Positions 2,951 through 13,092 of a stretch of DNA of 13,959 nucleotides are shown here, in pieces; position 1 is the stretch's first letter, and the number at the start of each line of letters is the position of its first letter. The translations under genes and the position numbers were made by a program. The DNA lies in the IMG/VR virus record IMGVR_UViG_2740892233_000006. The stretch is one strand, 5' to 3'. This DNA is from a virus (lineage: Duplodnaviria > Heunggongvirae > Uroviricota > Caudoviricetes). Below the pieces are notes generated by a model. It saw nothing but the letters and a program-made list of their open reading frames with translations, ran no database searches and was not told where the DNA came from.

Positions 2951-3073
2951 TCATACTCCTGCTCCTGTCAGGGTTTTGGCGTAATTCTTCAGTATTCGGT
3001 AATCGGTCAAAACAGAACCGGGGAAACGATATAAGCGCAGACGCCCCCAGCGGTGGCGAAGACGTTCTGCCAT
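2951..3073 (-). CDS. ylcG: small protein, YlcG-like (40 aa)
   Basis: Manual translation between rusA stop and Q start: MAERLRHRWGRLRLYRFPGSVLTDYRILKNYAKTLTGAGV*. Same position as ylcG in DLP12. Confidence 0.4.
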   Translation of the reverse strand: MAERLRHRWGRLRLYRFPGSVLTDYRILKNYAKTLTGAGV

Positions 3074-3087
3074 ATAAAACTCAAACA

Positions 3088-3450
3088 TCATTCATTCCCC
3101 ATTTCGGTGATGGTCAGTTCCAGCCTCCCACCTTTGGTAACAGGCATCTTCACAACGCGGTAATCAACGACCTGAGCATCATCCAGCCAGAAACCTGCTT
3201 TAGTGAGTGCGTCAAAAGCGGCTTTTTGCAGATTATCCAGGTCACGGCGACGGCGATCCGGCATGTGGCACTCAATGCGGATTTTCACAGGCATAGCCAA
3301 GCCGATATCCAGCATTGCGTTTTTAATGATTCGGGCGACGTTATCGCGGTATGCCTGCCCCTCTGCGCTGACGTGCGTGCGCCCGCGATTATGGCGGTAA
3401 TAGCGATTATTGCTCGGAGGCCAGGGTAATGTGATGCTGTAGGTATTCAC
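3088..3450 (-). CDS. rusA: RusA Holliday junction resolvase
   Basis: [38 protein letters not shown]...[11 protein letters not shown]; likely GTG start at 3450 overlapping the ybcO stop (GTGA); 120 aa. Confidence 0.85.
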
Positions 3451-3737
3451 GCCTTGATTACCCCCTCTTTCAGCCAGATAACCTGCGTTCTCGCCATACC
3501 TTCCAGCGCGCATTCTTTTGCGTACTCAGCATCGACAAAATGCGTGCGGCGGTCGATTTCGTCGTGACAGGCAGAACAGGCAATGGTGGCAATAAGGTCT
3601 GGCGGTTTAATACCGGTGCCACACAGTCCAGCCAGCCGGATATGTGCCAGTACAGACGTTTCAGGGTTGCCATTGCATACGCCAGGGATTCTTACCTGGC
3701 ATTCGCGACCACGCGCTGCTTTTCTCAAATCAGCCAT
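3447..3737 (-). CDS. ybcO: YbcO-like protein (DUF1364, putative nuclease)
   Basis: ORF track 3447..3776; start at internal [37 protein letters not shown]... (96 aa), Cys-rich; overlaps the ninE end. Confidence 0.8.
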
Positions 3738-3900
3738 GATTCCTCCTTGCTGCCAGTCGCAACCATTTTTTATCAACCAGGCTGGCGGTATATCCGAGCA
3801 GTGTTGGTATTTCGGATGGTTTTAGCTCAGGCTTACGCTTACGACGATTTGGTACTCTGTAGATGTGTCCGTTCATGACACGAATAAGCGGTGTAGCCAT
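3730..3900 (-). CDS. ninE: NinE-like protein (56 aa)
   Basis: Manual translation: [59 protein letters not shown] overlaps the ybcN stop (TAATG); stop overlaps the ybcO start. Confidence 0.7.
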   Translation of the reverse strand: MATPLIRVMNGHIYRVPNRRKRKPELKPSEIPTLLGYTASLVDKKWLRLAARRNHG

Positions 3901-4355
3901 TACGCCTCCTGCTTGTCGCGCAGCAGCTGGAACTCGCAGCTCTGCGGAATAGTCAGGTGGCAGCCAATATTCATCGCCCAGGCTTCAACCTTACACAGGA
4001 AGACATACATCTCTCCGGTATCAAGATCGGAGGTATGGCGTAACGACTGGATAGTAGTGATTTCGCCGGTTACGACATCAACCAGGTCCTTGGTTTCATA
4101 ACCGAGGTATGTGTGTTTGAGAGCATCTTTTACCCATGCTGCGGTAGCGAACGATTTCCCCCTGCGGATAAGGTATTCACTGATTTCGCTGTACCACATG
4201 TGGCTAAGTGCATTCTGGGAAAGACTGCGTCTCTCGCGCCACGGTTTAAGCACCATGCGAAAGCACTTGCCGTCTTCCAAATAAGGCTGGAGCTGCTGAC
4301 CGATAGCGGTGAAGTTACCGCGATGCAGTTTGATGCCGTCTTGTGGGAGGTTCAC
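3900..4355 (-). CDS. ybcN: YbcN-like protein (DLP12 ybcN homolog; reported DNA base-flipping protein)
   Basis: 151 aa [55 protein letters not shown]...; GTG start preceded by GGAGGTGA SD. Confidence 0.8.
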
Positions 4356-4391
4356 GCTTCACCTCCGCAGAGGTCAAACGCTGGATAAAGA

Positions 4392-4484
4392 AAATCGCAG
4401 GTGCATTTCTGCATCTGTGACGGGAGAAGATAGTTTAGATTGTATGTGCGCATAAACGTCCCCGTTTAGCGCAGAAGTCACCGG
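4392..4484. repeat. 93-bp direct repeat, copy A (about 95% identical to 6713-6805)
   Basis: aaaatcgcaggtgcatttctgcatctgtgacgggagaagatagtttagattgtatgtgcgcataaacgtccccgtttagcgcagaagtcaccg; contains palindromic hairpin GCGCataAACG-tcccc-GTTTaGCGC. Confidence 0.75.
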
Positions 4485-4505
4485 AGGAGTTCAAACTCCG
4501 GTGAC
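4479..4505 (-). other. perfect 9-bp stem-loop downstream of the cargo cassette (TCACCGGAG-N9-CTCCGGTGA); no U-tract
   Basis: Inverted repeat read directly; lies between the 133-aa gene stop and repeat copy A. Confidence 0.35.
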
Positions 4506-4576
4506 TTAATTATGACAAGTTGATTATTGAAAATCAAAAGTCATTTAAACAATAATGATACCCAGCAAGAGATTTC

Positions 4577-4978
4577 TTATTTTAACTCATAGATCAGACA
4601 GTCAACGATTTCTAAACCATTTACCATAGAATTAGAAACGCGAACTTTACCATCGTTGACTCTAGCAAATCCTTTTAACATTTTATAAACAAAAGCTGAA
4701 TCCCCCTTAGCCTCAATTGCTTCTAATGGTATCGGCTTATACTTTTTTGATATGCTATTTCTATTTATCTCACTGATTTTTCTATATATTTCTGCCGGCC
4801 CACGTTCTGAGAAGTCACTGATAACTAAAATATATCTCCAAGATAGATCTGGGTAATAAAACCACATTGCAGCATCAATAGTTAAATTCTGTAACTTGAG
4901 TTTTTTTAACAAAAATTGACCTGAGAATTCCATATCTTTTGTCAACTCTCTGCCGATTACCAGTGTGCTTTTACCCAT
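4577..4978 (-). CDS. hypothetical 133-aa protein, partner gene overlapping the HEPN-like gene end
   Basis: ATG at 4978 preceded by GGAG SD (7-nt spacing); overlaps upstream gene by 22 nt; AT-rich codon usage unlike flanking phage genes; no family recognised. Confidence 0.55.
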   Translation of the reverse strand: MGKSTLVIGRELTKDMEFSGQFLLKKLKLQNLTIDAAMWFYYPDLSWRYILVISDFSERGPAEIYRKISEINRNSISKKYKPIPLEAIEAKGDSAFVYKMLKGFARVNDGKVRVSNSMVNGLEIVDCLIYELK

Positions 4979-5373
4979 TTCAAAACTCCAGAATTTTGGT
5001 CACCTACAGCATCAAACAATTGTTCGGCCATAGCTTTACTTATGTTATTGTCGTATCTAAATTGCTCGCTCCAGTCTTTAACGACCGACCAGTTAATCTC
5101 CAACGAAACATCATTTTTTGCGTCAGCAATCAAAATTTGATGTAAGTTGGCAATTTTGAGAAGTTGCGACAAATCATGAGTATATGAATCATTTACGACT
5201 TTTTTGTTTGGAAACTCATGTTGTAAAAATGACTTGGCAATACAGGCCTTCAATGCACATTCAACTGCATACCCACAAAGATAATATGCACCATGAAAAA
5301 AGCCATGATCAAGCAAGCATTTGGCCTCATTAAGCCTAGTGTCAGATAATGCTTCAAGGTCGTTTTTATTCAT
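4957..5373 (-). CDS. HEPN-like domain protein (138 aa), candidate toxin/abortive-infection effector
   Basis: LLDHGFFHGAYYLCGYAVECALKACIAKS ... SYTHDLSQLL ... EQFRYDNNISKAMAEQLF matches the remembered HEPN (PF05168-type) pattern (helical A-x-E-x-ALKA, H-x-L-x-x-L, RY); TATAAT-like hexamers upstream on minus strand. Confidence 0.5.
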   Translation of the reverse strand: MNKNDLEALSDTRLNEAKCLLDHGFFHGAYYLCGYAVECALKACIAKSFLQHEFPNKKVVNDSYTHDLSQLLKIANLHQILIADAKNDVSLEINWSVVKDWSEQFRYDNNISKAMAEQLFDAVGDQNSGVLKWVKAHW

Positions 5374-5672
5374 ACAATTATAACTTGAATTATCCTAATT
5401 TTTATGATTATACCCTTATCAGGTATGATGTAGGAACTGAAAACAATATTGGATATCATTTTCGGTATTTCTCTGCAAATTCCAGCCCACAGGATCTCGG
5501 TGTACAATCTGTCGCTGATCGCGCAAATTTAGGGTCAATCACTTCATTTTTTGCATCAAACCCTCACTAACATCGAACGATTATAGTACAAGTAGTGTTC
5601 TTGACTTCTCATTAAACCGTCAGCATTCAATTAATTACAAAATACTAGCGGCATTTCTCTCCCGCAACTTTA

Positions 5673-6281
5673 TTACAGCCGTTCAGAACGTAAATGCGTC
5701 AATACTCGACTCCACTTATCATCCTGCCACGGCCGGAATTTTACATGTGCCGTTTCTCTGGCAAGGATTGCCTGTGCCTTATTGAGTATCCGGGGATATT
5801 CTTGTTCGATTGAAGTGAAGCGACCGGCTTCGCGGTGTTCTGCTACCTGAAGAAGCGGAGTGACGTTTTGGCAAGCGGTTAACATTGTGTCACTTGCCCG
5901 CCATAACCAAGCAAGTGTGCAAAGTTCGTTATCAGTGAATTGTTTTGTGATTGGGGATTGTTGAATTTCTCGATCGAGAATATCCAGCACCCAGCGGCGG
6001 AATTCTTTGGCCACAGGAGTGCGGGCGAACATGGCGATCAGATGGGCGCCACGGAGGGAGAAAATGCGAGTCTTCTTACGATAATTTCCTGAGGTCGTTG
6101 ATTCGACGACCTGAGACATTCCGTCAGTAAACTCATCAATATTTTTGTTGTAGATGTCGGTTACTGCTTTGGTGCTGGCATATTTTAATGCTGCCGCCAA
6201 TTCTTTGCTGGTAAACCAGATCTGGTTGTTGTGATTTATAGGAGTGAATTTTACATCGCGGAATGCGAGCTGAGTGACCAT
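5673..6281 (-). CDS. phage antirepressor-like protein (Bro-N / KilA-N / AntA-type N-terminal domain, unknown C-terminal domain)
   Basis: ORF track 5673..6518; domain-like sequence starts at internal Met: MVTQLAFRDVKFTPINHNNQIWFTSKELAAALKY...TRIFSLRGAHLIAMFARTPVAKEFRRWVLDIL. Start is uncertain (no good SD); a terminator at 6443-6466 argues against the 6518 start. Confidence 0.55.
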   Translation of the reverse strand: MVTQLAFRDVKFTPINHNNQIWFTSKELAAALKYASTKAVTDIYNKNIDEFTDGMSQVVESTTSGNYRKKTRIFSLRGAHLIAMFARTPVAKEFRRWVLDILDREIQQSPITKQFTDNELCTLAWLWRASDTMLTACQNVTPLLQVAEHREAGRFTSIEQEYPRILNKAQAILARETAHVKFRPWQDDKWSRVLTHLRSERL

Positions 6282-6442
6282 AGCGATAATCTCGTTTTGA
6301 ATTTGAGCTATCACCACCGACGACGCCAATCGACTGGTGGTGGACTGTGCAAGGTTGGCGTAACCGGTCAAAACGAAATCCGGCGCTTCCGAAGAAGCCC
6401 TCACACAGCCCACCATAATTTTTGTGTAGACGTGCACTGCGC

Positions 6443-6466
6443 ATAAAAAAACCGCGAACGCGGTTA
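6443..6466 (-). terminator. rho-independent terminator in the nin-type region (tR2-like position)
   Basis: Minus strand: AACCGCG-ttc-GCGGTT followed by TTTTTTTAT. Confidence 0.6.
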
Positions 6467-6712
6467 TGCGTCGTTTTGATGTCCGGGACGCCAATCCCGT
6501 GTGCCGATTTTGCGGCAACGCACAGAATATAGCGCCGGATAAATAATGTCGTCAACCCTTGCATATGGGGGGCGCGATGATCACTACTACCACCATAATC
6601 GCTCCAACTGTTGCAACTACTTTAGGCTAAGACATCACGATTTCCATATCACCTTTAGCCGCCAGACAAACAGAGACTCCCTGTTCTTGGCTGCCAAAAA
6701 CACCGAATGCAA

Positions 6713-6805
6713 AAAATCGCAGGTGTATTTCTGCATCTGTGGAGGGAGAAGAGAGTTTGGATTGTATGTGCGCATAAACGTCCCCGTTTAGCGCAGAAGT
6801 CACCG
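6713..6805. repeat. 93-bp direct repeat, copy B (partner of 4392-4484)
   Basis: aaaatcgcaggtgtatttctgcatctgtggagggagaagagagtttggattgtatgtgcgcataaacgtccccgtttagcgcagaagtcaccg; 5 mismatches to copy A. Confidence 0.75.
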
Positions 6806-7033
6806 TAGTTGTTCATATTCTGATGACATGATAATTTCCTATTGAATAGAAAAAATTAACACGACTCATTCTTATGACTGGAAAAAGCAATCATGCTAAT
6901 AATCATTGTTGTTCCAGTTCCAAATGCAGCGAAATAATCACCAATATTTTTTCTACCGGTTTCGACTTTGATGCTATATTCTGCTAACACCTAACTAACA
7001 CTACGTTTCACACAGCAATTACATGGAAATAAC

Positions 7034-7381
7034 ATGACTATCAAAGCGACTGACATAGAGATTCTTCATCGTTATGCTGAAGGGGTAATGGAACGTTCTA
7101 ACCATCATGCAAAAAATGTTGGTGCAGCCGCTCTTACATTGCTAGGAGGTGTTATCTGGAAAGCCCTGCCCGGATCAATCGAGATAAGAACGTATAACGG
7201 AAGTCTTGCAAATATGGTGTGGTGGCAAAGCGAAAGAACATTAAAAAATTATGCAATCTCATACAACCATAATTCATGTGAAATTGAAATGAGAGATGAA
7301 TCAGTCAAAGGTGCTGTATTATTTAGCATTTCCAACGAAACCACTCCAGAAAAAATATTATCACAGCTTTCTGAGCTTTAA
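7034..7381 (+). CDS. hypothetical 115-aa protein, reverse-oriented orphan (moron) gene at the ren position
   Basis: MTIKATDIEILHRYAEGVMERSNHHAKNVGAAALTLLGG...; purine-rich RBS; AT-rich; opposite strand to the flanking early genes; stem-loop directly downstream. Confidence 0.55.
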   Translation: MTIKATDIEILHRYAEGVMERSNHHAKNVGAAALTLLGGVIWKALPGSIEIRTYNGSLANMVWWQSERTLKNYAISYNHNSCEIEMRDESVKGAVLFSISNETTPEKILSQLSEL

Positions 7382-7386
7382 TTAAA

Positions 7387-7404
7387 GGCGGTGCTAACAC
7401 CGCC
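7387..7404 (+). terminator. stem-loop after the 115-aa gene (GGCGGTG-ctaa-CACCGCC), weak or bidirectional terminator
   Basis: Perfect 7-bp GC-rich stem 6 nt after the stop codon; A/T-rich flanks but no clean U-tract. Confidence 0.35.
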
Positions 7405-7556
7405 CATACCATTACTCCACATCTTACGCAACTTGATAATTATGCTCTATTAAATACCCACAATATTTCATCAATGCATGGGTCAGCTACAAAATGTTTA
7501 CCGTGGTAATTCCTGTTTTCGCAACATCTCAAAAGAACAATAAACACTGTATTTCT

Positions 7557-7589
7557 TCAAGTAACGAAGAATCTTTCTTTGCCCGTCAT
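7557..7589 (-). pseudogene. ren: ren 5' remnant (MTGKERFFVT*)
   Basis: ATG overlaps the P stop codon (GTATGA) as ren does in lambda; first residues MTGKE match remembered lambda Ren, then stop after 10 codons. Confidence 0.4.
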
Positions 7590-8431
7590 ACACTTGCTCC
7601 TTTCAGCCCAAACTTAGCTTTGATTTCTGCGATCTTCGCCAGAGCCTGTGCACGATTTAGAGGTCTACCGCCCATAACAGGAAGTTGTTTTACTGGTTCA
7701 GGTATCGTCTCACCACGGTTAATTCGCGCTGTCATACAGGTCAGTTCATCGGCAGCCTTGCGCCGTAATTCCGCGTCAGTCAGCGCATTGGCCCGCATGT
7801 TCTGGTACAGGTTGGTAACCAACCAGTAATGCGCGTTCGATTTCCACGGATAAGACTCTGCATCCGGATACAGGCCACGCTTCCGGCAATACTCGTAAAC
7901 CATATCAACCAGCTCGCTGACGTTTGGCAGCCCGGCGTTAACGGATGCTTCTTCCCGGCACCATGCAACAAACTGCCCGGGTGATGGCAGAAATGGTCTA
8001 TTCTGCCGACGGGCAACACGCATTCCGGCGCTCACCTGTTCCATCGTGGTGATCCCGTTTTCCCGGAAAGCCAGAACCCACTGGCGGCGGATTTCGTTCA
8101 GTTCGTTCTGGTCACGATTAGCCAGGCTCGCCGGGAAAGTTGCCAGTAACTGGCTGAATACACCGTTGATTATCTGCGCTACCTGCTGTACCTGCGGCTT
8201 TTCGTCGTACTGTTCCGGCATGTTGTTGGCGATCCGACGCATCTGCTCACNNNNNNNNNNGTTAGCCAGGCTCGCCGGGAAAGTTGCCAGTAACTGGCTG
8301 AACACACCGTTGATGATCTGCGCTACCTGCTGTACCTGAGGCTTTTCGTCGTACTGTTCCGGCATGTTGTTGGCGATCCGACGCATCTGCTCACGGTCAA
8401 AGTTAACCATCTGTGCGGCGATGTTTTTCAT
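7586..8431 (-). CDS. P: replication protein P (lambda P-like helicase loader); reading frame contains scaffold gap 8251-8260 with duplicated flank
   Basis: MKNIAAQMVNFDREQMRRIANNMPEQYDEKPQVQQ... ...KIAEIKAKFGLKGASV; the 281-aa ORF is inflated by an artefactual repeat of EQMRRIANN...ASLAN around the N run. Confidence 0.85.
   Translation of the reverse strand: MKNIAAQMVNFDREQMRRIANNMPEQYDEKPQVQQVAQIINGVFSQLLATFPASLANXXXXEQMRRIANNMPEQYDEKPQVQQVAQIINGVFSQLLATFPASLANRDQNELNEIRRQWVLAFRENGITTMEQVSAGMRVARRQNRPFLPSPGQFVAWCREEASVNAGLPNVSELVDMVYEYCRKRGLYPDAESYPWKSNAHYWLVTNLYQNMRANALTDAELRRKAADELTCMTARINRGETIPEPVKQLPVMGGRPLNRAQALAKIAEIKAKFGLKGASV
8251..8260. other. 10-nt N run (scaffold gap) with about 130 bp near-identical duplicated flanks
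   Basis: Sequence before the gap (gattagccaggctcgcc...atctgctcac) recurs after it with 3 mismatches. Confidence 0.95.
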
Positions 8432-9503
8432 AGATCCACCCCGTAAATCCAGTCTGTGTTTGTCAGGTCGAGTTTTGGTTTGCTGGCTGTCACGGCTGCC
8501 TGTTGCTTGTTACGGTTGATTTCGAGCTGGGTCCACTTGTCGCGGAGTTTGGCCGGACTNNNNNNNNNNAATCCACCCCGTAAATCCAGTCAGTGTTTGT
8601 CAGGTCGAGTTTTGGTTTGCTGGCTGTCACGCCTGCCTGTTGCTTGTTACGGTTGATTTCGAGCTGGGTCCACTTGTCGCGGAGTTTGGCCGGACTCAGC
8701 ACGTTACCGGACCAGAAGTTGTCCTGGCAGGCCCAGCGGAAAAGCACACACATATCGCGGTGGTTACGTCCGTCACGTTCACGCATCAGGCGGATATCGT
8801 TAGCCCACCCTGCAAAATTCGGTTTTCTGGCTGATGGTGCGATGGTCTTCACCATGTCAAACATCCACTCTGCGGCGGTCAGGTCTTCTGCTGTTCCCCA
8901 CTTGCTGCCGCTCTGAATTGCAGCATCCGGTTTAACCACAGAAAGATCGTTTTCTGGCTGGTCAGAGGATTCGCCAGAATTCTCGGACGAATAATCTTTT
9001 CTTTTTTCTTTTGTAATAGTGTCTTTTGTGTCCCCCTGTTTTGAGGGATAGCAATCCCCTAATTTGAGGGATGTTTTATCCCTCGTTTTAGGGGATTTTC
9101 CCTCGTTTTGAGGGATGTCCCTCATTTTAGGGGAACCTCCCTCGTTTTGAGGGATGCACCATTCTGAGATGTTTTTATTTGGTCCAAACATGCCGCCTTG
9201 CTGCTTGATAATATTCATTCTGACGAGTTCTAACTTGGCTTCATTGCACCGTTTGACAGGTAACTTTGTAATCTCGCTAAGTTGAGAATCGGTGATTCTG
9301 TCCATTGGTTTATTCCACCCATAGGTTTTACGCAGAATGGCAAGCAGCACTTTAAACTGTCGCTTGGTCAGATCTGCGCCTGAATAGGCCTCAAGCAGCA
9401 TATTTGATAGTCTGGCGTAACCATCATCGAGATCTGCCACATTACGCTCCTGTTCGGCAAAGTTACCTCTGCCGAAGTTGAGTATTTTTGCTGTATTTGT
9501 CAT
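8428..9503 (-). CDS. O: replication initiator O, lambda type (contains ori iterons; frame interrupted by scaffold gap 8560-8569)
   Basis: MTNTAKILNFGRGNFAEQERNVADLDDGYARLSNMLLEAYSGADLTKRQFKVLLAILRKTYGWNKPMDR...; GGAG SD; the C-terminus ...TDWIYGVDL with stop overlapping the P ATG lies in the segment below the gap. Confidence 0.8.
8560..8569. other. 10-nt N run (scaffold gap) with about 125 bp near-identical duplicated flanks
   Basis: O C-terminal coding sequence appears on both sides of the gap with 2 mismatches. Confidence 0.95.
9031..9156. repeat. lambda-type replication origin iterons, six copies inside the O gene
   Basis: Six TCCCTC-N5/6-GAGGGA-type palindromic units at about 20-bp spacing, followed by an AT-rich stretch. 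Confidence 0.8.
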
Positions 9504-9535: not shown

Positions 9536-9677
9536 TCAGAATTGCATATCAATTTGCTTAGAGTCCCCGGCGGCCACCGGGGATTTTTTCTTTGTGATTT
9601 CATCAAGCGCATACTTAAAAGCCCTGCTAATCGGACTGATGTCTGATGCCATTCCGAAAGCACACAAGACCGAAGCA
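9536..9677 (-). CDS. cII-like gene, 3' fragment only (5' end lost in scaffold gap)
   Basis: Frame ending at stop 9536-9538 encodes ...ISRAFKYALDEITKKKSPVAAGDSKQIDMQF*, resembling the remembered lambda CII C-terminus (...ILTNKKRPAATERSEQIQMEF); directly upstream of O. Confidence 0.45.
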
Positions 9678-9687
9678 ATAAATCTCC
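9678..9687. other. 10-nt N run (scaffold gap) joining an O 3' end to a cII-like 3' fragment
   Basis: Flanks are not duplicates here: one side is O C-terminal coding sequence, the other a cII-like gene end. Confidence 0.95.
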
Positions 9688-10571
9688 NNNNNNNNNNCGA
9701 CTGTCACGCCAGCCTGTTGCTTGTTCCGGTTGATTTCGAGCTGGGTCCACTTGTCGCGGAGTTTGGCCGGACTCAGCACGTTACCGGACCAGAAGTTGTC
9801 CTGGCAGGCCCAGCGGAACAGTACACACATGTCGCGGTGGTTACGTCCATCACGTTCACGCATCAGACGGATATCGTTAGCCCACCCTGCAAAATTCGGT
9901 TTTCTGGCTGATGGCGCGATGGTCTTCACCATGTCAAACATCCACTCTGCGGCGGTCAGGTCTTCTGCTGTCCCCCACTTGCTGCCGCTCTGAATCGCAG
10001 CATCCGCTTTCACCACAGGAAGGTCGTTTTCTGGCAGGTCAGAGGATTCGCCAGAATTCTCGGACGAATAAGGTTTTATATTGTCTTTTGTTAGTTTGTC
10101 TTTTGTGTTTACCTGATTCGGGTAAGTGCCTTTACCTGATTTGGGTAAACTTTTCTTACCTGATTCAGGTAAATTTACCTCTTTCAGGTAAACTTTATTT
10201 TTCTTACCTGATTCGGGTAATGTTGACCATTCACTGACCACATTATTAATGCCGATATTCCGCCCGCTCTGAATAAAAATCCCACGCTTTACCAGAACAC
10301 TTTTTGCAGCAGAACACTTGTGCGGCAATATCCCGGTCAACTCGGAAAGTTGCTCGTTGCTCACCCAGTCCAGTTTTTTATTAAAGCCATATGTTTTGCG
10401 CATGACAGCCAGGAAGACCAGAAGCTGGTGCTGTGTTAATCCGGCCAGCATTACAGCTTCCAGCAACTCATTTGCAATGCGCGTATAACCATCATCGAGA
10501 TCTGCCACGCGCGGCTCCTTTTGTGCCGCATCCGGCACTGGAAAATTGAATATCTCAGCAGTGTTTGCCAT
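9688..10571 (-). CDS. replication initiator O, second type (different N-terminal iteron-binding domain; 3' end lost in gap)
   Basis: Start MANTAEIFNFPVPDAAQKEPRVADLDDGYTRIANELLEAV... with GGAGG SD (ORF track start 10661 is too long); C-terminal domain identical in sequence to the lambda-type O. Confidence 0.75.
10108..10222. repeat. second replication origin iteron set, five copies of TTACCTGATTCGGGTAA-like palindromes inside the second O gene
   Basis: Five units (TTACC-N7-GGTAA) at 23-29 bp spacing, read directly. Confidence 0.75.
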
Positions 10572-10657
10572 AATTCCTCCCGCAATGAGTGTGTTACGAT
10601 TTGCACCTGAAAGTCGGTTCTGTTCCAGCAGACCGGCTTTCGCCATTTCTGAACCTG

Positions 10658-11197
10658 TCATATCGCCCCCAGCATGGTAGTAACCATCGCCATCAATGGA
10701 CCAGCCAGCTCTGGGTCCACACGAAACATCGACACAATACCTTCACTAATTTCCTTCAGTTTCTGGTGGCGTGGTGCGTTGAGAATGACAGCCTGTTTTG
10801 CCTCACTGAGTTCCTTTTCCATTTCAGCCAACCTAGCCATGAAGCTATCCTGCTCAACCAGGTAACCGCGATATTCCAGCGGTAGTACCGCCAGAATTGC
10901 CGGGGTCAGTTCACGCACGTTATTTCGGTATTTTTCAGAATCGAATTTGTTATCGAGGAAGCGGAACAGCTTCTGGCGTGTACGGCTGACATCATCAGGG
11001 AAATCGATGGTGCCGCCGCCCTGCTCCCGATACTCATTCACAATGAGTGTGGCAACGACATCCTGATTATCTACAGCCGACCAGGCGCGGACGGCATCAC
11101 GGATTTTTTCGTGGCCTGGCACCTGTTTTGTTTGAGAACGATTTATCACCGCAGTCGGGCTAAATCCGCTAGTCTGTTGGTATGGAAGTGGTTGCAT
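10658..11197 (-). CDS. YdaT-like protein (occupies the cII position downstream of cro)
   Basis: 179 aa; GGAG SD; segment SRTRQKLFRFLDNKFDSEKYRNNVRELTPAILAVLPLEY resembles remembered Rac YdaT; gene order cro-like then this gene then O. Confidence 0.55.
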   Translation of the reverse strand: MQPLPYQQTSGFSPTAVINRSQTKQVPGHEKIRDAVRAWSAVDNQDVVATLIVNEYREQGGGTIDFPDDVSRTRQKLFRFLDNKFDSEKYRNNVRELTPAILAVLPLEYRGYLVEQDSFMARLAEMEKELSEAKQAVILNAPRHQKLKEISEGIVSMFRVDPELAGPLMAMVTTMLGAI

Positions 11198-11497: not shown

Positions 11498-11601
11498 AAC
11501 AACCTCCGTGGTTAATTTGAATCAAGATTAAAACTATGGTTGTTTTTAGTCAACAACCATTTTCGTTTGATGGAATAAAACCTTGGTTGTACATTTGGAC
11601 T
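11498..11601. promoter_or_regulatory. OR-type operator region with divergent pR (minus) and pRM (plus) candidates
   Basis: Perfect palindrome TGGTTGTT-N7-AACAACCA (11537-11559) overlapping a minus-strand TTGACT -35; related half-sites at 11498-11515 and 11584-11600; plus-strand TTGATG-N17-TACATT ends about 6 nt before the cI ATG. Confidence 0.6.
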
Positions 11602-12291
11602 ATGAAAACAACACTCTCAGAAAGACTTAAAGAAGCCAGATTAGCGCGAGGCCTTACACAAAAGGCGCTTGGGGATTTGGTCGGGGTTAGCCAGGCTGCT
11701 ATTCAGAAAATCGAAACAGGGAAAGCTAATCAAACAACTAAAATCGTGGAGATCGCGAACGCTTTGGGTGTGCGCGCAGAATGGTTATCTTCTGGCGTTG
11801 GAAATATGTCAGACAGTACAGTGCAACCAATACAATCAACTGTCAGCCATTCCAAATACTTCAAGATTGACGTTCTTGATATAGAAGTCAGTGCTGGGCC
11901 GGGAGTCATCAACCGTGAGTTTGTAGAAGTTCTACGCTCGGTTGAGTACTCGTTTGACGATGCTCGTCACATGTTCGATGGTAGGAAGGCAGAAAATATC
12001 CGCATCATTAACGTGCGTGGTGACAGCATGTCAGGAACGATCGAACCAGGTGATCTGCTGTTCGTTGATATCACGGTTAAATCTTTCGACGGTGATGGTA
12101 TCTATGCATTTCTGTACGACGACACCGCCCATGTAAAGCGCCTGCAAATGATGAAGGATAAACTGCTGGTTATCTCTGATAACAAGAGCTACTCACCGTG
12201 GGACCCTATCGAGAAAGACGAGATGAACCGGGTATTCATATTCGGTAAGGTTATTGGGAGCATGCCGCAGACGTACAGAAAACACGGATAA
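11602..12291 (+). CDS. cI: CI-type prophage repressor (N-terminal HTH, C-terminal LexA/S24-like autopeptidase domain)
   Basis: Start at MKTTLSERLKEARLARGLTQKALGDLVGVSQAAIQKIETG...; C-terminal domain has GDSM (Ser) and HVKRL (Lys) dyad context; ORF track start 11536 would run through the operators. Confidence 0.85.
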   Translation: MKTTLSERLKEARLARGLTQKALGDLVGVSQAAIQKIETGKANQTTKIVEIANALGVRAEWLSSGVGNMSDSTVQPIQSTVSHSKYFKIDVLDIEVSAGPGVINREFVEVLRSVEYSFDDARHMFDGRKAENIRIINVRGDSMSGTIEPGDLLFVDITVKSFDGDGIYAFLYDDTAHVKRLQMMKDKLLVISDNKSYSPWDPIEKDEMNRVFIFGKVIGSMPQTYRKHG

Positions 12292-12372: not shown

Positions 12373-12636
12373 ATGAGTAATAAAACACTTGTTAAAAAAT
12401 CAAATAACTGTGTCGATGCATACGCCGACGCGTTTGGCTACTCTTCGTTTGGTGACGGCTCTCAGCGCCTAGGTTCAATTTCTTTTTTTCATAATGTAAC
12501 TGAATGGCCTGTTGATGAAAGTGACGATGTTGAGAACATAAAGTACAACATTGCAACCATTAGAATGCCCGAAGAATTGATGCTTAAATTGGCTGACTTC
12601 ATTCGCGACCAGCATGACAAAGCTAAAACAAACTAA
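12373..12636 (+). CDS. hypothetical 87-aa acidic protein, first gene downstream of cI (rexA position)
   Basis: MSNKTLVKKSNNCVDAYADAFGYSSFGDGSQRLGSISFFHNVTEWPVDESDDVEN...; AT-rich; same strand as cI. Confidence 0.55.
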   Translation: MSNKTLVKKSNNCVDAYADAFGYSSFGDGSQRLGSISFFHNVTEWPVDESDDVENIKYNIATIRMPEELMLKLADFIRDQHDKAKTN

Positions 12637-12648
12637 TCGTAATTAATT

Positions 12649-13092
12649 ATGAAACACGATTATTACGAAGCTCCAAACCTAAATGATAAAATTGCAAAGG
12701 CGGCAGAATCATTTTGTTTGCACTCCAGTGCGTCTTCCCAGCTAGCAGGTATATCTGGAAAAAGATGGGACATGCTACAATCAAGTGGTAGCAGTGGGTC
12801 TGGGAGTGATAACATGCCTGAAAAAGTTGCAAAACTGGAGTCCGATGTTGCTCATATCAAACGAGACGTTGATGAACTTAAAACAGACGTTAAAGCTATC
12901 GACAAAAATATGATAACTATTCTTGCACGTCTGGACTCTATAAAAGAATCCTTAACAAACAAGCCATCAAGTGATGCTGTCGATAGAAAGATTTCAGACG
13001 CAAAGCTTGCGGTATTGCTTGGTGTTCCAGCAATCATCGCTGCAGGAACAGGACTTTATAAGCTATCAATGTACTTTTTCTTTAGTGCTTAA
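12649..13092 (+). CDS. hypothetical membrane-anchored coiled-coil protein (147 aa; alternative start at 12811 gives 93 aa)
   Basis: Ser/Gly linker SSGSSGSGSDN, heptad-like EKVAKLESDVAHIKRDVDELKTDVKAIDKNMITILARLDSIKESL, C-terminal hydrophobic helix AVLLGVPAIIAAGTGLYKL. ATG 12 nt after the preceding stop; GGGAG SD before the internal MPEKV start. Confidence 0.55.
   Translation: MKHDYYEAPNLNDKIAKAAESFCLHSSASSQLAGISGKRWDMLQSSGSSGSGSDNMPEKVAKLESDVAHIKRDVDELKTDVKAIDKNMITILARLDSIKESLTNKPSSDAVDRKISDAKLAVLLGVPAIIAAGTGLYKLSMYFFFSA

Follow-up and report, generated by a model that had tools for sequence, protein, structure and literature searches.

A stretch of 13,959 nucleotides (nt) from a Caudoviricetes virus (IMG/VR record IMGVR_UViG_2740892233_000006; hereafter the window) carries two small overlapping genes on its minus strand, one for a HEPN-domain protein and one for a partner protein, and raises the question whether these two genes make up a module of defense or addiction. 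HEPN ribonucleases (RNases) are the working part of immune and addiction systems such as Cas13, Csm6, RnlA, HepT, AbiV, HepS and Tha, and to our knowledge each of these systems silences its nuclease in a different way. The initial annotation of the window, which was made from the sequence alone, had put forward the pair as a candidate toxin–antitoxin or abortive-infection cassette. As far as computation goes, our analyses support this interpretation, and "candidate" is still the right word for it. With a probability of roughly 0.55 we favor a toxin-first, translationally coupled HEPN toxin–antitoxin or abortive-infection module, in which an RNase of the AF0298 type would be held inactive by its bound partner. 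As part of this reading, the pair may serve the prophage as an addiction or abortive-infection/superinfection-exclusion cassette. A HEPN module of this general type would be familiar; what appears to be new is a partner family that does not belong to the MNT nucleotidyltransferases, together with a reversed order of the genes.

Both overlapping open reading frames (ORFs), of 138 and 133 residues, were borne out, and they occur strictly together. A homolog of the partner was found directly downstream of the HEPN gene and on the same strand in all 86 genomic, plasmid and reference loci, and directly downstream again in all 42 complete IMG/VR viral loci, so that 128 of 128 loci from many phyla have this arrangement. 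HEPN relatives of 27–31% identity, as found on Rhizobium and Lichenicola plasmids, are still followed by a homolog of the partner (hhalign probability 96–97%). All-against-all clustering of the flanking ORFs found no third conserved gene around the pair. The junction of the two genes is conserved as well. In 81 of the 86 loci, again from many phyla, the overlap measures exactly 22 nt and has the form NTGG-N13-TGG-TRR, which is read as W-x4-W-stop in the HEPN frame and as M-x-x-x-x-(L/V)-V in that of the partner, and the five exceptions resemble frameshifts, variant starts or a fusion. A programmed frameshift across the overlap was considered and rejected; A-rich slippery runs are present in some loci (Acinetobacter, Catalinimonas) and are not conserved. 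In a Bryobacterales metagenome-assembled genome (locus L068, 5947–6777) the HEPN and partner domains lie in a single continuous ORF, which may be a natural fusion or the result of a 1-nt assembly error in the overlap. The mean pairwise identity is 48.5% for the HEPN protein and 34.0% for the partner, with the HEPN protein being more conserved in 98% of the pairs; the pairwise distances of the two proteins are correlated (r = 0.72). This difference in rates would fit an enzyme with a faster-evolving binding partner. Judged from these comparisons, the two genes appear to be an obligate and ancient unit.

The upstream gene encodes a HEPN protein, as had been proposed from short motifs. All of these motifs are present in the 138-residue translation (AYYLCGYAVECALKA at residues 29–43, SYTHDLSQLL at 63–72 and FRYD at 105–108), and the Pfam HEPN profile (PF05168) matches it with 27.8 bits, where the gathering score is 22. 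Matches to Csm6, HepT-type toxins, AbiA, AbiV, LsoA and HepS have lower scores. With a profile-detectable domain of the PF05168/HEPN-T clade and a four-helix up-down bundle of HEPN topology, the HEPN fold of this protein is established. In PHROGs it is assigned to phrog_5737 (function unknown), and the sole PADLOC model that it matches is PDC-M28A, at a weak level (E = 1.8e-7, 29.7 bits). NCBIfam gave no match, and sequence searches of the PDB with the protein and with its family profile gave no significant one.

A canonical Rx4-6H motif is absent from the HEPN protein, in agreement with the initial annotation. No His is located 4–6 residues past R106 or past any other Arg; R106 is followed by Y-D-N-N-I-S-K, and the family consensus likewise does not have the motif. 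The catalytic activity had been called uncertain for this reason, a judgment that did not hold up. AF0298-type HEPN-T proteins and AbiV typically lose the His of Rx4-6H and retain a basic residue, and for the AF0298 type an alternative active site was predicted, made up of the motif's Arg, an acidic residue of helix 2 and a conserved His from the insert that separates helices 2 and 3 (Anantharaman et al. 2013, PMC3710099). In the family studied here, R13, E38, K42, H66, W101, R106 and Y107 are invariant across phyla. For the three residues E38, H66 and R106 no exception occurs among 49 sequences, and in a set of 71 their conservation is 95% or higher. In the secondary structure of the model, E38 is part of helix 2 (residues 26–46), H66 belongs to the insert that precedes helix 3 (residues 47–77), and R106 is found at the end of helix 3, directly before the loop to helix 4. 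The three residues are thus placed along the helices as described for the alternative site, and because this E/H/R arrangement is kept, the missing Rx4-6H is not evidence of inactivity. From sequence and model, the protein is most likely a metal-independent RNase of the AF0298 type within the HEPN-T clade. Our literature search found no report that directly tests the alternative active site predicted in 2013.

The partner, in contrast to the HEPN protein, was not recognized by any family profile. Searches in Pfam, NCBIfam and PADLOC gave zero matches, and the PDB sequence searches with the partner and its family profile had no significant match; PHROGs lists it as phrog_5760, function unknown. 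When 1.84 billion cluster representatives were searched exhaustively with phmmer, 233 relatives were found at E ≤ 0.001, almost all of them stand-alone proteins of about 125–140 residues. One 178-residue protein labeled "eukprot" shares 99% identity with the E. coli partner along 77% of its length and almost certainly stems from bacterial contamination of a eukaryotic assembly. In 81 relatives W39, W47, R113 and Y130 are invariant, and G20, L27, G60, Y65, G121 and D126 are nearly so. The partner hence belongs to an undescribed alpha+beta family, which agrees with the first impression of a protein without recognizable family and not obviously an MNT.

MntA nucleotidylates HepT. A highly diverged MNT as partner could neutralize the HEPN protein enzymatically in a type VII-like manner, for example by nucleotidylation of Tyr107 beside Arg106. 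We consider this highly improbable, as several findings speak against an MNT. None of the 81 relatives matches any Pfam family, nucleotidyltransferase families included, and the family has no GS...DxD motif and no recognizable catalytic constellation, its invariant positions being the two Trp, the Arg and the Tyr named above instead. When the partner profile was compared by hhalign with an alignment built from a genuine MNT (PF01909/PF18765) at one locus, and thus with a single MNT subfamily, the probability was 0.2%. A Foldseek search of the PDB with the partner model found nothing significant (best E 0.07, TM below 0.4), so that its fold is unassignable. The best structural matches are MNTs, and this weak resemblance faintly hints at an MNT origin at the level of the fold, with the catalytic motifs absent. 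As the partner has neither nucleotidyltransferase motifs nor profile similarity to the MNT family compared, neutralization by AMPylation is unlikely. Furthermore, the order of the genes is the reverse of that in MNT–HEPN pairs, which nearly always begin with the MNT gene (PMC3710099).

The gene order also bears on the question which of the two proteins is the toxin. With roles reversed or shared, the partner would act as effector or sensor and the HEPN protein as regulator or antitoxin, and the upstream location of the HEPN gene is indeed the usual antitoxin position (PMC3710099). A Deinococcus plasmid (NZ_CP140099.1, locus L088, 4995–6763) points in the same direction. It encodes a HEPN homolog of 42% identity, followed with the same 22-nt overlap by a 460-residue protein in which residues 3–129 are the partner domain (hhalign 99.1%) and the C-terminus is DUF3800; this fusion would suggest the partner as an adaptor for other effector-like domains. 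Going by their titles, DUF3800 is reportedly named in studies on retron-associated genes and on rare CRISPR-Cas systems. However, a catalytic constellation is recognizable in the HEPN protein and not in the partner. As far as the available descriptions go, HEPN is the toxin in every characterized HEPN pair (HepT, RnlA, LsoA, AbiV). The toxin gene comes first in several characterized toxin–antitoxin systems, rnlAB among them, and a distribution of roles other than HEPN toxin and partner antitoxin thus seems quite improbable to us.

The cassette comes with expression signals of its own. The window has five TATAAT hexamers, and three of them (5377–5382, 5407–5412 and 5580–5585) are found on the minus strand in the 210 nt that precede the HEPN start, in line with the hexamers pointed out initially. 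The one at 5407–5412 is conserved together with a TTACAA −35 hexamer in diverged cassettes. This was seen in an upstream alignment of enterobacterial cassettes with HEPN proteins of 74–85% identity from differing prophage contexts. Conservation was limited to the last ~75 nt before the ATG, beginning at the −35 hexamer, and sequences farther upstream were unrelated. Conservation of the TTACAA-18-TATAAT block is tied to the cassette alone, which suggests that this promoter-like element travels with it as its own putative promoter. A generic promoter consensus scan called none of the three upstream hexamers; it missed the one at 5407–5412 because the −35 in this copy is weak. The transcript is predicted to start near 5400, with a leader of about 27 nt. 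No Shine-Dalgarno sequence is found at a usable distance from the HEPN start. Upstream of the partner, an element of the GGAG/GGGG/GGAA type recurs at the same place in most loci, and among 76 loci a Shine-Dalgarno match of at least 4 nt precedes the partner in 72% and the HEPN gene in 36%. We infer that the partner may be made in excess over the HEPN protein.

A stem-loop had been reported downstream of the cassette. It is present, with perfect 12-bp arms at 4475–4486 and 4496–4507, in a 126-nt stretch that folds at −33 kcal/mol (z = −3.6) and with no minus-strand T-run after it; its attribution to the cassette, however, could not be upheld. The stem-loop is located inside a 141-nt block (4400–4540) that is 88–90% identical in many lambdoid phages without the cassette, and it hence belongs to the phage backbone. 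Copies of the cassette in the nin slot (L108–L118) diverge a few dozen bases past the partner stop and then converge on this conserved lambdoid block. A role as cassette terminator was ruled out by this origin. In phage 82 (X92588.1) the stem-loop element is annotated as putative promoter and "possible regulator-binding site" for orf33-ninB, and in the window a promoter-like site (4509–4537, minus strand, TTGATT-17-CATAAT with upstream TG) adjoins the stem-loop (4475–4507) just upstream of orf33-ninB. Stem-loop and promoter-like site together appear as a conserved lambdoid element, the function of which in the nin region appears uncharacterized. The cassette DNA itself has no Rfam match and no tandem repeats. 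An RNA antitoxin of type III, AbiV- or ToxIN-like, was rejected on these grounds, the second component being a conserved protein.

In the prophage, the cassette occupies foreign-looking DNA. The GC content is 0.34–0.36 over 4400–5600 vs 0.50–0.54 in the flanking nin genes (3000–4400), which confirms the AT-richness noticed before. Positions 4400–5650 are 100% identical to prophages of O26/O111-type E. coli chromosomes, and 190 of 5426 complete E. coli genomes (3.5%) cover at least 80% of this stretch. In the reference NZ_CP027387.1 the two genes are annotated as "HEPN domain-containing protein" and "hypothetical protein"; they are flanked by a P22AR-C antirepressor-like gene and by orf33/ybcN(ninB)-ninE-ybcO-rusA-quuD of a DLP12-like lambdoid prophage. 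At the same position other lambdoid phages have different, unrelated small genes, and the nin-region position is hence a variable cargo slot, as the initial annotation had supposed. The upstream neighbor (5673–6281, minus strand) encodes an antirepressor-like protein with Bro-N plus P22_AR_C; its longest ORF, with a TTG start (5673–6518), exceeds the annotated 202-residue product.

The family extends far beyond E. coli. A scan of a collection with one genome for each of 185,579 species found at least 556 confirmed HEPN relatives in more than a dozen phyla. Among the 80 loci retained from it are loci of Gammaproteobacteria, Desulfobacterota, Acidobacteriota, Chloroflexota, Planctomycetota, Verrucomicrobiota, Bacteroidota/Chlorobi, Nitrospirota, Gemmatimonadota, Latescibacterota, Methylomirabilota and Poribacteria, with one Aenigmatarchaeota metagenome-assembled genome among them. 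The cassette was also present in 43 IMG/VR viral contigs. Relatives in different phyla lie each in a different neighborhood, with no conserved synteny. In an Acinetobacter chromosome/prophage the pair is located beside prophage lysis genes, an insertion sequence (IS) and umuDC. An Acinetobacter plasmid of 13.9 kb has it at a distance of ~1.1 kb from BrnT/BrnA, separated from these by a single gene, and in Catalinimonas it lies among housekeeping genes. This pattern looks like that of a solitary, horizontally moving two-gene cassette in the manner of toxin–antitoxin modules, not like that of a defense-island resident. Two small adjacent, co-transcribed genes with a patchy mobile distribution and variable neighborhoods are also what generically describes type II systems. 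The anatomy of a toxin–antitoxin or abortive-infection module follows from two small coupled genes with a promoter of their own, a patchy mobile distribution and strict co-occurrence.

Nevertheless, a number of observations weigh against a toxin–antitoxin or abortive-infection module. For a toxin, a HEPN identity of ~50% between phyla is unusually high. The −35 hexamer of the present copy matches at 3 of 6 positions, which makes expression in the lysogen uncertain. Most type II antitoxins use a DNA-binding domain for autoregulation, and the partner has no recognizable one. The cassette is rare in curated collections, with a single occurrence among 50,697 deposited phage records and 5 among 72,556 plasmids. 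Outside prophages it is not found in defense islands: among 139 immediate neighbors in 80 diverse genomes, examined with PADLOC and Pfam, there were 2 PtuA and 3 PIN-domain proteins, and the remaining neighbors were mostly transporters, oxidoreductases, TPR proteins and other housekeeping or metabolic proteins. Finally, a literature search covering PDC-M28, the WP accessions, non-MNT HEPN partners, nin-region defense and UPF0332/COG2250 found no paper on the pair.

Part of these observations could be explained by a pair with no role in conflict, that is, a non-toxic two-subunit complex for RNA binding or processing, or a regulator, which some mobile elements carry along. Housekeeping neighbors in most environmental genomes, the well-conserved HEPN sequence and the scarce association with known defense genes would agree with it, and some HEPN domains, such as that of MtlR, are non-catalytic regulators (PMC3710099). 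Yet such a function hardly accounts for the very patchy occurrence in E. coli and in the species-level collection, for the missing synteny, or for the repeated finding of the pair in prophages, on small plasmids and flanked by IS elements. The AT-rich foreign DNA with its own putative promoter and the retention of the E/H/R residues of the alternative RNase site speak against it, too. We therefore regard a non-conflict role as unlikely.

Under the toxin–antitoxin or abortive-infection reading, the cassette would be a stand-alone module of two genes that brings its own promoter and that the lambdoid prophage carries as cargo in its nin region. Translation of the partner would be coupled to that of the HEPN gene through the fixed 22-nt overlap, with the better ribosome-binding site on the side of the partner. 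The partner would then bind the HEPN protein and keep it inactive, which would amount to a type II neutralization by protein–protein contact with the toxin gene first as in rnlAB. If the partner were lost, titrated or displaced, for example upon phage infection or loss of the element, the HEPN RNase would be freed. With a catalytic set formed by E38 of helix 2, H66 of the helix 2–3 insert and R106/Y107 at the end of helix 3, it could cut cellular or phage RNA, and growth would stop. The features that underlie this proposal are collected in the table.

Features of the HEPN–partner cassette and its surroundings, with positions in the window
Feature	Position	Strand	Description
HEPN-domain protein, 138 aa, ATG start	4957–5373	−	WP_001038620.1; putative RNase effector / toxin
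Partner protein, 133 aa, ATG start	4577–4978	−	WP_000520500.1; alpha+beta, putative antitoxin / HEPN regulator
Dual-coding overlap, 22 nt, ATGGGTAAAAGCACACTGGTAA	4957–4978	−	HEPN end W-V-K-A-H-W-stop; partner start M-G-K-S-T-L-V
Partner Shine-Dalgarno sequence GGAG, 7 nt before ATG	4986–4989	−	within HEPN codons for invariant Gly129-Val130
Putative −10, TATAAT	5407–5412	−	conserved among diverged cassettes
Putative −35, TTCCTA here, TTACAA in diverged copies	5431–5436	−	from upstream alignment; 18-nt spacer to −10
AT-rich cargo island carrying the cassette, GC ~0.35	4541–5672	.	between Bro-N/P22AR-C antirepressor-like gene and conserved lambdoid nin-promoter block

We may speculate further that the pair stands for a new, broad family of HEPN immune or addiction modules. 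In these, the alpha+beta domain would be a dedicated regulator or sensor of HEPN, possibly a relative of the nucleotidyltransferase fold that has degenerated and is no longer catalytic. This domain, occasionally fused to others (DUF3800), would free the RNase upon a phage-derived trigger, and the 22-nt overlap would fix the ratio of the two proteins. This extended proposal is doubtful at present, and we put it forward tentatively. If the partner is in fact a new HEPN inhibitor or sensor, it would add an extra regulatory principle to HEPN systems and provide a function for a protein family annotated only as "hypothetical". It could also shed light on how O26/O111 strains exclude superinfecting phages or keep their prophages stable. 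At least 556 species-level genomes carry the pair, as do prophages of Shiga-toxin-lineage E. coli, and its partner has no family assignment in the libraries searched. Its interest hence lies in this breadth, in the partner's lack of annotation, in the rigid dual-coding junction and in its occurrence in prophages of Shiga-toxin-producing E. coli. Being a small two-gene system and probably easy to clone, it would, moreover, lend itself to a test of the alternative active site of the AF0298 type.

The window has further features of note outside the cassette. A 115-residue ORF (7034–7381, plus strand), on the strand opposite to the early-right operon, lies in a second AT-rich island (~6600–7600, GC 0.36–0.40). 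It matches Pfam VCH_CASS14, a family of integron cassette proteins (E = 5.7e-20), has no PADLOC match, and is probably another cargo gene. Two tandem genes with a Phage_rep_O domain on the minus strand (8490–9503 and 9627–10661) encode 337 and 344 residues, whereas the otherwise identical prophage of NZ_CP027387.1 has a single replication-O-like gene; the window hence comes from a variant in which the replication module is duplicated or mosaic. The 251-residue ORF at 11536–12291 is probably a CI-like repressor, as a comparison with the reference prophage and its S24 peptidase gene suggests. Directly downstream of it are two small ORFs on the plus strand, of 87 residues (12373–12636) and 147 residues (12649–13092), with no significant Pfam or PADLOC match. 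Lambda holds rexAB at the equivalent position.

In agreement with the initial annotation, which had seen in the pair a candidate for an uncharacterized module, no characterized system in PADLOC or in the papers searched matches it. The HEPN two-gene system DS-28 of DefensePredictor consists of different proteins, and the supplements searched for the DefensePredictor paper list neither of the two WP accessions. In AbiV of Lactococcus the antitoxin is an RNA (type III), in contrast to the conserved protein that forms the second component here. PDC-M28 of PADLOC has some likeness to the cassette, since its A component is likewise a HEPN profile, about 138 positions long, and more distant relatives match it at a similar level; the weak match to A, however, marks a sister family, and the partner matches no PADLOC model, PDC-M28B included. 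PDC-M28 itself is uncharacterized. PDC systems, or phage defense candidates, are defined by being embedded in restriction-modification (type I), BREX or DISARM loci (Payne et al. 2024, bioRxiv 10.1101/2024.01.29.577857), and the distant relationship to PDC-M28A gives the cassette a tentative link to defense. A further HEPN family, "HEPN-T (Cpin_6617)", was reported in fusion to "a dyad of ferredoxin domains" (PMC3710099). By this description it might be the family studied here, and the fusion partner noted in 2013 would then be the partner domain.

Among HEPN proteins, the closest clade is that of the AF0298, TT1696 and ST0689 type in HEPN-T (PF05168; PDB 2hsb, 1ufb, 1wol), and the solved proteins of this type have a sequence similarity to our HEPN protein below HMMER detection. 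AF0298-type proteins typically stand alone or are paired or fused with an MNT; the present family, in contrast, is always followed by a non-MNT partner. HepT–MntA of type VII likewise consists of two small overlapping genes, one of them HEPN, and both systems are widespread and mobile. They differ in the order of the genes, which is reversed here with HEPN upstream in all 128 loci, in the RX4HXY motif, which is absent here, and in the partner, which has neither nucleotidyltransferase motifs nor profile similarity to the one MNT family (PF01909/PF18765) compared. RnlA–RnlB and LsoA–LsoB resemble the cassette in a different way. In these pairs as well, the gene of a HEPN RNase toxin is located upstream of that of a small protein antitoxin, and they are found on mobile DNA; RnlAB is reported to function in anti-phage defense (PMC8266594).

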